From Patescibacteria group bacterium (lineage in GTDB: Bacteria; Patescibacteriota; WWE3; UBA101185; 2-01-FULL-41-18): DNA of 64,000 nucleotides. Position numbers and translations under genes: made by a program. Shown here piece by piece: positions 26,350 to 28,723 of this stretch (positions are counted from its first letter, which is position 1; each line of letters starts with the position of its first letter). The notes below the pieces were generated by a model. It saw nothing but the letters and a program-made list of their open reading frames with translations. It searched no databases and had not been told where the DNA came from. The stretch is taken from positions 9,992 to 73,991 of the forward strand of contig JBBTST010000002.1 in NCBI GenBank assembly GCA_038064575.1, given 5' to 3'.

Positions 26350-27102
26350 ATGAGGTCTACCAAAGTTGAGGGCATAATTCTCAAGTACAAAAATTATGAT
26401 GAGGCATCCAGACTTTTTACGCTTTTCACAAAGGAAAGGGGAAAGATAAAAGCTGTTGCTAAGGGTGTTAGGCGAATAACGTCTAAGCGTTCTGGGTCTT
26501 TGGATCTCATGAGTCATGTAAGAGTGTCTTTGGTAGAGACTAGGGGTTTACCCCTTATTACTGAAGTGGCTCTTGTTGATAGTTTTGATGCTCTTAAAGG
26601 GAATTTAAAAGATTTTAGCCTATCTTTTTCTGTGCTTGAGATTTTGGATAAGTTTTTTGAGGAAGAGGATCTTAATGAAGAAGCTTTTATGCTTACACTT
26701 GGGTTGTTGAGGAGGGCTGGTAGGTTAACGGGTCTTAAAAGGGAACTTTCATTAGCATATTTTCAATTTAAATTGCTTGCGCTTCTTGGGCTTGATCCAA
26801 TAACAAGCTTTTGTGTTAAGTGTATGAAAGATATTGATGGGCACTCTGAAAAGGTGGTCTTTAACCCCTCAGAGGGCGGTGTGGAGTGTCCTTACTGTTC
26901 AGGTGGGGTAAAGGGGCTTAGTCTTTTGAATGGTACGCTTAAACTTATTTCAGCAATCAAGACTACACAGTTTGATAACCTTGCCTTTGCTGTTATTTCT
27001 CCCGGAAACGTTTATGAGCTTGAAGAAATGATTAAAGTTCATATTGAAGCCAGTCTTAATGAAAAACTTGTTGCATCAAAAATTCTTGTTGGTTTAAAAT
27101 GA
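26350..27102 (+). CDS. recO: DNA repair protein RecO
   Basis: N-terminal OB-fold region (KVEGIILKYKNYDEASRLFTLFTKERGKIKAVAKGVRR) and a C-terminal Cys4 zinc finger (CVKC…CPYC). Confidence 0.8.
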   Translation: MRSTKVEGIILKYKNYDEASRLFTLFTKERGKIKAVAKGVRRITSKRSGSLDLMSHVRVSLVETRGLPLITEVALVDSFDALKGNLKDFSLSFSVLEILDKFFEEEDLNEEAFMLTLGLLRRAGRLTGLKRELSLAYFQFKLLALLGLDPITSFCVKCMKDIDGHSEKVVFNPSEGGVECPYCSGGVKGLSLLNGTLKLISAIKTTQFDNLAFAVISPGNVYELEEMIKVHIEASLNEKLVASKILVGLK

Positions 27103-27139: not shown

Positions 27140-27346
27140 CAGCTCATGCCTCTGAGAAAGACTTGACGCAGCTTTAATCTTTTTCTATAGTTTGGGAGGC
27201 TAGCGTTGAAGGGGTTGGCATCCCTGAGCTCCTTAATTTTAATAGAGGTGGTTTGGCGTTTGCCAAACAACAAGGATGGAACCGCGAAGAAACCTTCGTT
27301 CCTTGATCTAAGTGATTTTAGGTTAGGGAAGGAAGGTTTATTTTAT
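27140..27346 (+). promoter_or_regulatory. T-box-like leader upstream of glyQS; candidate translational (SD-sequestering) T-box riboswitch
   Basis: GGAUGGAACCGCG at 27274-27286 matches the T-box consensus GGGUGGNACCGCG, with a UGGA bulge that fits tRNA-Gly discriminator U73. A CCUUC at 27293-27297 is complementary to the SD GGAAGG at 27326-27336. GGC-A sits in a stem-loop at 27212-27222. Confidence 0.4.
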
Positions 27347-28723
27347 ATGCAAGAAGAGTTAATGAACAAGATTACAAGTCTTTGTAAAAGGCGAGGATTT
27401 GTGTATCCGACTTCAGAAATTTATGGGGGGTTTGTAAGTTCTTATGACTACGGGCCGTATGGAGCCAGCCTTCTTAGAAATATCAGAAACCTTTGGTGGC
27501 GAGAATTTATTGAAAAACGGGAGGATATGGTGGGGCTTGATTCGCAGATTATTCTCCATCCTAAAACTTGGGAGGCATCCGGACATGTTACTAGTTTCAA
27601 TGAGCCTTTAGTTGAAGATAAGGTAACCCACAAACGCTACAGGGCTGATCATTTGATTGAAACTTGGCTTAAGGTTAACAAGCCTAATGGCAATTTGGTG
27701 TCAGAAGACATGACTTTTGAAGAACTGGCTTCTTTTATCCTTGAGCATAAAGTAAAAAGTCCTGATGGGAATGAGATAACTTCACCAAAAAAATTTAACC
27801 AGCTTTTTAAAACGAGTGTAGGAGTGGTTGAGGGAGATAAATCTGAGGTCTATTTAAGGGGGGAGACAGCGCAAGGGATTTTTTCTAATTTTAAAAACAT
27901 ACTTGATTCTACGAGGATGAGACTTCCATTTGGAGTTGGACAGATTGGAAAAAGCTTTAGGAATGAAATTACTACCGGGCAATTTATTTTTAGAACTCTT
28001 GAGTTTGAGCAGGCAGAAATTGAATATTTTTTTGATCCTGAAAAGTCTGACTGGCAAAAGTTAATGACCGACTGGAAGGCTGCTATGTATACTTTTGTAA
28101 CCAAAACTTTGGGTGTTAGAGAAGAAAACCTTAGATGGCGAAGACACACTGATAAAGAGAGAAGTCATTATAGTAAAGATACATATGACCTTGATTACCA
28201 GTTTCCTTTTGGGTGGAAGGAATTATGGGGAATTGCGTATCGAACTAATTATGATCTGACACAACATGCTAAATTTTCAGGACAAGACTTAGCTTTTAGA
28301 GACCAGGAGTCTGGGAAGGTGTTTGTACCTCATGTTGTTGAACCAGCGGTTGGGCTTAATCGCTTGTTTTTTACGGTTTTAGCGGATGCTTATGTAGAAG
28401 AGGAAAGGCGCGTAGTGCTCAAACTAAAGCCTGAACTGGCCCCTTATAAGGTGGCAGTTTTTCCTCTTGTTGCTAATAAAGAGGAGCTGACCCGAAAAGC
28501 AAGGTTGGTTTATGACAATTTAAAGATGTCTGTGCCAACTTTATGGGATGCTAGGGGCAATATTGGAAAAAGATATTATGCTCAGGACGAGCTTGGAACC
28601 CCTTATTGTGTCACAATTGATTATCAGACTTTGGAGGATGAAACTGTGACTGTGAGAAACAGAGATACAATGGTTCAGGAGAGAGTTAATATGAAAGAAA
28701 TTCTTAGTAAGATTGGTTTCTGA
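27347..28723 (+). CDS. glyQS: Glycine--tRNA ligase (class II, dimeric GlyQS type)
   Basis: MQEELMNKITSLCKRRGFVYPTSEIYGG…YGPYGASLLRNIRNLWW… plus motif 2/3-like FRNEITTGQFIFRTLEFEQAEIEYF. The ORF-track start at 27206 would translate the leader and is rejected. Confidence 0.85.
   Translation: MQEELMNKITSLCKRRGFVYPTSEIYGGFVSSYDYGPYGASLLRNIRNLWWREFIEKREDMVGLDSQIILHPKTWEASGHVTSFNEPLVEDKVTHKRYRADHLIETWLKVNKPNGNLVSEDMTFEELASFILEHKVKSPDGNEITSPKKFNQLFKTSVGVVEGDKSEVYLRGETAQGIFSNFKNILDSTRMRLPFGVGQIGKSFRNEITTGQFIFRTLEFEQAEIEYFFDPEKSDWQKLMTDWKAAMYTFVTKTLGVREENLRWRRHTDKERSHYSKDTYDLDYQFPFGWKELWGIAYRTNYDLTQHAKFSGQDLAFRDQESGKVFVPHVVEPAVGLNRLFFTVLADAYVEEERRVVLKLKPELAPYKVAVFPLVANKEELTRKARLVYDNLKMSVPTLWDARGNIGKRYYAQDELGTPYCVTIDYQTLEDETVTVRNRDTMVQERVNMKEILSKIGF

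Follow-up and report, generated by a model that had tools for sequence, protein, structure and literature searches.

The leader of the glycyl-tRNA synthetase (GlyRS) gene in the window, meaning the whole 64-kb stretch of DNA analysed here, carries a glycine T-box at positions 27197-27304 of the forward strand, to which all window coordinates below refer. Judged from sequence and modelling, this glyS leader is probably a working yet minimal T-box riboswitch, in which a competing hairpin would act as a transcription terminator and would also bury the ribosome-binding site. The identity of the element as a glycine T-box is secure; an earlier note on this DNA had proposed both the T-box and its specificity for tRNA-Gly, and the GGC specifier and UGGA bulge described below bear this out. 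The notable result is the reduced architecture of the element, together with the spread of that architecture across Patescibacteria and Chloroflexota.

Identification of the T-box

The Rfam T-box model RF00230 matched 27197-27306 with 50.4 bits, at an E-value of 3e-10 in a local search and 4.5e-8 across the whole window, and in E-value mode it was the sole Rfam match in the 64 kb. At the gathering threshold the whole window gave no Rfam matches, and only E-value mode reveals the element; the RF00230 search suggested in the earlier note did return the family, but at a score below the gathering score of 93 bits. The shortfall is due to two large deletions, one of distal Stem I and the other of Stem II together with the IIA/B pseudoknot, while alignment is good over the base of Stem I, Stem III, and the antiterminator. 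A covariance model built from 42 relatives with the window sequence left out (model R2) gave 68.7 bits and an E-value of 1.3e-16, as the single match in the window. Resemblance to the T-box family is far beyond chance. Two other types of leader were considered and rejected: leader-peptide attenuation, as a run of glycine codons is absent, and a glycine riboswitch, as an Rfam match to one is absent.

Architecture of the leader

A promoter-like site, TTGACG-17 nt-TATAGT (27163-27191), was predicted by a consensus scan with 10 of 12 matches, and the transcript likely starts at about 27197-27199, at the foot of Stem I. From 27197 the leader reads AGGCUAGCGUUGAAGGGGUUGGCAUCCCUGAGCU, followed by a linker of 17-18 nt, Stem III, and AAGGA-UGGAACC-GCGAA-GAAACC-UUCGU-UCCUU.

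Stem I, as delimited by the RF00230 alignment, is reduced to 35 nt (27198-27232), and both of its helices, the basal (27202-27204 with 27228-27230) and the upper (27210-27214 with 27221-27225), covary in relatives. Between them lies a putative K-turn, with a 3-nt bulge, GUU (27205-27207), followed by GA and faced by GA on the 3′ strand to give tandem G.A/A.G pairs (27208-27209 with 27226-27227); a UGA...GGA/UGA pattern is conserved here in the alignment. The stem is closed by a six-nucleotide terminal loop, UUGGCA (27215-27220), which displays the specifier GGC (27217-27219) flanked by U27216 and A27220. The earlier note had seen GGC followed by A in a stem-loop, and the two do fall together at 27217-27220, upstream of the GlyRS gene and in the terminal loop of the hairpin at 27210-27225. 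The distal part of Stem I, with its AG bulge and distal loop, is absent, with 6 nt replacing 76 positions of the RF00230 model, and the same holds for all relatives.

Stem I is followed by a single-stranded linker (27233-27250), which ends in a conserved purine stretch of the AGAGGUG type in the RF00230 alignment. Stem II and the Stem IIA/B pseudoknot are absent, 1 nt replacing 40 model positions, and the linker is unstructured. Stem III (27251-27268; GUUUGGC-GUUU-GCCAAAC) was placed by both the RF00230 and R2 alignments, and all six of its modelled pairs are changed on both sides in relatives.

The antiterminator or antisequestrator (27272-27304) was recovered by RF00230, by R2, and by folding. 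It consists of helix A1 (27272-27276 with 27300-27304) and helix A2 (27284-27288 with 27295-27299), both of which covary in relatives, and a 7-nt bulge, UGGAACC (27277-27283), whose UGGA is complementary to the tRNA 3′ end UCCA; the pattern AGGA-UGGAACC-GCGAA...UUCGU-UCCU spans 27273-27303. The T-box core named in the earlier note, GGAUGGAACCGCG, is found where it was placed, at 27274-27286. Its sole mismatch is an A in place of G at 27276, and a U in place of C at 27300 restores the pair, giving helix A1 as AGGA/UCCU in the window versus AGGG/CCCU in relatives, and the compensatory A27276-U27300 pair argues against a decaying relic.

Contacts with tRNA-Gly

Among 43 copies of the small T-box, the specifier is GGC in 39 and GGA in 4, preceded by U in 42 and followed by A in 41, and UGGA is invariant in all glyS-linked relatives. 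In canonical Firmicutes glyQS T-boxes, recovered with the same DNA pattern, the base before GGC is C or A instead of this U. No tRNA genes were found in the window or within 10 kb past each end; the tRNA-Gly(GCC) of a related MAG (L017) has discriminator U73 and the anticodon loop UUGCCAA, and its CCA is not encoded. From the sequence of that tRNA, pairing is possible between GGC and GCC and between UGGA and UCCA. The loop sequence UGGCA is moreover complementary to U33-GCC-A37 at five positions, and it is proposed that an extended loop-loop contact of this kind could make up for the absent contacts at the elbow and through Stem II.

Small T-boxes in related genomes

Relatives were drawn from the 80 species-representative genomes with the closest GlyRS. 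With a strict core pattern, 20 of these had a T-box before glyS, all with UGGA, and a covariance model (R1) extended the count of small T-boxes upstream of glyS to 35 of the 80, in Patescibacteria and Chloroflexota. The structure of R1 was set by hand and refitted with Infernal, RNAalifold on a raw MAFFT alignment having given a wrong consensus. MAGs labelled as CPR that carry the element are L001, L002, L025, L033, L056, L057, L060, L061, and L080, and its carriers in Chloroflexota belong to Ardenticatenaceae, Promineifilaceae, Anaerolineae, and Caldilineaceae. Common to all is the small layout of a K-turn, a helix of 3-5 bp, and GGC in a terminal loop.

All helices covary across the 42 relatives analysed without the window. 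In these, 92.7% of alignment cells are paired, compared with 39-46% after a shift of partners by 1-3 columns; fitting of the alignments to the model works in its favour, but these shifted controls are far lower. Changes on both sides were counted in 257 cells and affect 18 of the 23 pairs, and none of 500 shuffles reached the observed value. RF00230 scores the small class at 34-50 bits (relatives 34-40 or less), or does not reach an E-value of 1e-3, against 86-115 bits for canonical T-boxes caught by the metagenome pattern. As the scores are so low, pipelines that apply the gathering score would miss the small class.

Three layouts were seen downstream of the antiterminator. In the first, found in most relatives, a hairpin followed by U5-8 lies well before the start codon, and in L001, L002, and L026 an SD is absent between this terminator and the AUG. 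The second is the layout of the window, and is shared by L140, L144, and L113, where an SD-like 3′ arm and U6-7 are followed directly by the GlyRS AUG; L108/L139 and L156 have the same combined layout before other ORFs. The third is a sequestrator without a U-run, in which GGAGG and AUG follow, and comprises the second tandem copies of L081, L088/L094, L117, and L128, plus L154. In L081 and L088, whose GlyRS is 75% identical, this copy has the same CCUUCGUCCCU...AGGGAGGAGG design as the window with the U-tract absent.

The competing hairpin

Folding predicted a 22-bp hairpin of -29.5 kcal/mol at 27290-27339 as the OFF state, compared with -12.5 kcal/mol for the antiterminator. The hairpin uses the 3′ strand of the antiterminator, and since the 15 nt at 27290-27304 are common to both, the two folds are mutually exclusive. 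Its 3′ arm contains an SD-like purine tract, AGGGAAGGAAGG (27325-27336), which ends 10 nt before the AUG. The earlier note had paired CCUUC (27293-27297) with the SD, and this stretch does face GAAGG (27332-27336) within the hairpin. Pairing of the SD-like stretch also holds in the predicted folds, with a probability of 0.085 that AGGGAAGGAAGG is unpaired in the unconstrained ensemble, and folding with and without constraint, as that note had advised, leaves the tract paired in the OFF fold and free in the ON fold, GGAAGGAAGG being released when the T-box fold is enforced. In the window, the OFF fold is favoured over the ON fold by about 19 kcal/mol; such gaps, taken from a noisy scan, fail to separate terminator-type from SD-type copies, as both have values of about 15-20 kcal/mol.

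Between the hairpin and the start codon lies a U-rich tract, UUUAUUUUAU (27337-27346), a candidate terminator tail. Its d'Aubenton-Carafa-type tail score of 4.83 falls in the top 0.85% of window positions on this strand, in a window of 36% G+C, and is above those of the pre-start spacers of 17 other window genes (1.6-4.0); T-box terminators of relatives score 4.85-6.0 and U-less copies 2.0-2.4. The claim of the earlier note that a strong terminator hairpin with a U-tract is lacking is not supported, and its description is wrong in missing this tract, which stands directly 3′ of the hairpin. As in Bacillus glyQS, a hairpin and then a U-tract precede the coding region, and the structure is a predicted terminator. 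A simple terminator scan made no call on the hairpin, because the stem has an internal mismatch, and folding and the tail score were used in its place. Weak points of the hairpin as a terminator are two A residues that break the U-tract and a long stem with a weak A-U/G-U upper half.

Proposed mechanism and alternative readings

Transcription would start at about 27197, and Stem I would fold first, its K-turn and 4-5 bp helix presenting U-GGC-A in the terminal loop, followed by Stem III and then by the T-box antiterminator. In the ON state, the anticodon of uncharged tRNA-Gly(GCC) would pair with GGC, A37 and U33 of the tRNA may pair with the U before and the A after the codon, and the free tRNA 3′ end UCCA would pair with the UGGA bulge, stabilising the antiterminator at 27272-27304. 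RNA polymerase would then go on to transcribe glyS, leaving both the AUG and the purine tract open. When uncharged tRNA is lacking, 27290-27304 would instead pair with 27325-27339 in the much stronger 22-bp hairpin, which would be mainly an intrinsic terminator, the decision being made during transcription, and which would also bury the ribosome-binding region in those transcripts that escape termination. The hairpin is read as mainly an intrinsic terminator because the U-rich tract, and then the AUG, directly follow it. A hairpin that combines termination with burial of the ribosome-binding region is the best reading of the leader, and its two effects are inseparable by sequence alone.

The earlier note had preferred translational control of the Actinobacteria ileS type to termination. 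In such a purely translational T-box, transcription would always read through and the hairpin would only sequester the SD, reversibly; for the window this is unlikely. The half of the claim that stands is that AGGGAAGGAAGG is well spaced from the AUG and paired in the OFF fold. The half that does not is the exclusion of a terminator, as UUUAUUUUAU has the tail score of true terminators and most relatives have plain ones. An extended anti-SD, CCUUCGUYCCU, is common to the second T-box of L081, L088, L117, and L128, where GGAGG and then AUG follow, a U-run is absent, and the tail scores only 2.0-2.4; the U-less copies of L081 and L088 favour translational control in that sub-lineage. A passage in PMC7583486 likewise ties a short Stem I to translational control. 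Against this, an SD-like motif was found within 20 nt of the start codon in only 3 of 18 well-defined window genes (starts 2508-55965). Initiation led by an SD is therefore not general here, and Shine-Dalgarno pairing seems to matter little to the organism, a point that bears on claims of SD sequestration in this lineage. The purine tract is forced by its complementarity to the T-box 3′ strand and would appear automatically. Furthermore, an OFF advantage of about 19 kcal/mol would be hard to reverse at equilibrium, although U-less relatives show a similar gap. Assignment to the ileS type fails because Stem II and the IIA/B pseudoknot, which are essential there, are absent.

A purely transcriptional T-box, whose hairpin would do no more than terminate and whose SD-like tract would simply result from complementarity and be irrelevant to translation, is quite improbable. 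It would suit the SD-poor genome, the majority of relatives in which hairpin and U-run lie far from the start codon, and the three (L001, L002, and L026) that lack any SD between terminator and AUG. In the window, however, the hairpin ends 8-11 nt before the AUG, inside the ribosome footprint, where it should hinder initiation with or without an SD, and the AGGAAGG at -17 to -11 is among the few good SD matches in the genes checked. That the element is a decaying relic, a chance look-alike without regulatory function, or a real N-terminal extension of GlyRS is very improbable, for although its RF00230 score is under the gathering threshold, several of the closest relatives (L082-L087) lack a T-box, and a database entry (P0001) lists a 505-aa ORF, the E-values range from 1e-8 to 1e-16, all functional positions are kept with the one change compensated, the alternative hairpin is intact, and the 47-aa extension is aligned by none of the homologues, which are 446-471 aa long.

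Comparison with known T-boxes

Among the closest known systems is the Bacillus-type glyQS leader (RF00230), the simplest transcriptional T-box studied. The window element shares with it the GGC-A specifier, the UGGA bulge, the K-turn at the foot of Stem I, the absence of Stem II and IIA/B, the presence of Stem III and the antiterminator, the downstream GlyRS gene, and a competing hairpin that is the more stable fold and leads into U residues. It differs in lacking everything above the specifier, namely the AG bulge, the distal loop, and the tRNA-elbow platform. In the small class, a terminal loop of 6-9 nt, not an internal loop, presents the codon, and the base before it is a conserved U, as against C or A in canonical copies. 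The window hairpin also contains the ribosome-binding region, unlike that of the Bacillus type.

The actinobacterial ileS T-boxes (Sherwood et al. 2015, as cited in parts of PMC7583486 and PMC11297988) are likewise described as having a Stem I without the elbow module and an antisequestrator whose 3′ strand is an anti-SD pairing with an SD-like tract. In these, according to the same passages, a Stem II (S-turn) and a IIA/B pseudoknot hold the anticodon, and both are absent in the window, which moreover specifies glycine instead of isoleucine, belongs to another phylum, and has a U-rich, terminator-like tail after the hairpin. Sections of PMC7583486 and PMC11297988 state that transcriptional T-boxes generally need a long Stem I with an elbow-binding module, for fast capture of tRNA, and that short or ultrashort Stem I is found in translational ileS T-boxes, in which Stem II and IIA/B compensate and are essential. 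As worded in those sections, the rule that either an elbow platform or Stem II is needed counts against the best reading, since the window RNA has neither.

Full-text searches found no literature linking T-boxes with CPR or Patescibacteria, in agreement with the earlier note, which was aware of no description of T-box regulation in CPR-like lineages. The same searches found no description of a minimal T-box class, with the older key literature incompletely covered and an earlier description possible.

The GlyRS gene and its context

The gene under the T-box encodes a single-chain, class II type glycine--tRNA ligase of 458 aa, starting at ATG 27347 and ending at 28723, as delimited by the lengths and alignment starts of its homologues, which carry Pfam domains PF00587 and PF03129. 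The longest ORF begins at TTG 27206, runs through the leader, and would give 505 aa. GlyRS homologues are 446-471 aa long, and their alignments begin at residues 1-9 of the ATG 27347 protein; none aligns the 47-aa extension. From the lengths and alignment starts, the extension from TTG 27206 is an annotation artefact, as the earlier note had suspected, and homologues that align through 27206-27346 as protein, which would have spoken for an extension, did not appear. The public-database GlyRS (P0001; window 27206-28723) is listed at 505 aa, which is 47 residues too long, with the extension translated through the riboswitch, and the sole 505-aa database entry is the window ORF itself.

Upstream, recO ends at 27102, and the gene order DUF4012-RecO-GlyRS-MraZ is common to the closest relatives. 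The best GlyRS matches with names are to Amesbacteria, Woesebacteria, and 'Patescibacteria group', followed by Chloroflexota at 65-68% identity, and identical proteins are present in Hainich groundwater assemblies. Among the 20 largest window ORFs there were no other synthetase genes with which leaders could be compared. Many low-G+C MAGs with GlyRS 67-72% identical (L003, L004, L006, L009-L011, L016-L018, and others) are labelled 'uncultured Gammaproteobacteria' or 'Pseudomonadales', and these labels look like placeholder or wrong taxonomy.

In L082-L087, whose GlyRS is 74-78% identical and whose gene order is the same, the T-box is absent at all six loci, and the spacer between recO or another neighbour and glyS is only 8-66 nt in most. 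From this absence it follows that gain or loss of the element is frequent, even within this narrow clade.

Significance

These small T-boxes may, tentatively, constitute a third architectural class, of about 90-135 nt and without either an elbow platform or Stem II and IIA/B, in which tRNA-Gly would be held only by a loop-loop contact of up to five pairs and a 4-bp acceptor contact. Such a class would mostly drive transcription terminators. It would often precede glyS in Patescibacteria (Microgenomates and Paceibacteria groups) and Chloroflexota while escaping the Rfam gathering score, and with it T-box regulation would be reported in CPR for the first time. Current models, as presented in parts of PMC7583486 and PMC11297988, hold that a T-box needs a second grip on the tRNA, either at the elbow through distal Stem I or at the anticodon stem through Stem II. 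A widespread natural family with neither grip, located before terminators, would directly test this second-grip rule, and would supply a minimal tRNA-charging sensor of 90-110 nt for structural work and engineering. It would also mean that a tRNA-sensing RNA controls at least one synthetase in CPR bacteria, whose genomes are tiny and whose known regulators are few. Standard Rfam-based annotation overlooks the small class and lets ORF callers run through the leader.

Variants among the relatives

Tandem T-boxes are known, for example in the Bacillus thrZ and trp leaders. Similarly, two small glycine T-boxes in series were found in L081 (2505-2743), L088 (1890-2130, equal to L094), L110, L117 (1908-2189), and L128 (1053-1388). 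In these tandem loci, the first copy leads to a hairpin and U6 terminator and the second to a hairpin without a U-run, in which a strong GGAGG just before an AUG is paired, whereas the single copy of the window combines both features. The specifiers of L128 are GGC in the first copy and GGA in the second, and the two copies may for this reason sense different tRNA-Gly isoacceptors; L117 has GGA in both. Between the second T-box and glyS, L081 (2775-2945) and L088 (2162-2332) contain a 56-aa ORF (MTEKLNWDSILREIV...AAAANAYYIWVPIFLKK) with protein-level conservation, many synonymous changes, and a hydrophobic C-terminal half. This ORF is the gene directly under the SD-sequestering copy, and the window has no counterpart of it.

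Still smaller T-boxes of about 87-91 nt, which lack Stem III as well, were found in L002 (248-338), L003 (9675-9761), L081 (2505-2594), and L110 (894-981); they are reduced to Stem I, a linker rich in purines, and the antiterminator, with a clear terminator downstream. In the Caldilineae-type copies of L012 (9730-9869), L067 (9729-9840), and L077 (5087-5195), G or A follows GGC, helix A1 has GGGG in place of AGGG, and the competing hairpin lacks a U-run; these copies may represent a translational or otherwise distinct sub-class. In L108 (4386-4521; equal to L139, 1640-1775), a UGGA T-box core with the layout of terminator, SD, U7, and AUG precedes a non-GlyRS ORF (MEKKGTSQQNLSYLRHSCSHLLAAA..., possibly ThrRS-like). 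This element has no RF00230 match at E <0.01 and has ACC triplets in a large upstream loop, and could represent a small T-box with a different amino acid specificity. An extra conserved hairpin (CCACAGAGAACACAGAG...CUCUGUG.CCUCUGUGG) is present about 40-120 nt upstream of Stem I in L022, L024, L046, L047, and L063, placing it between promoter and T-box in several Chloroflexota leaders; CPR copies and the other Chloroflexota copies lack it.
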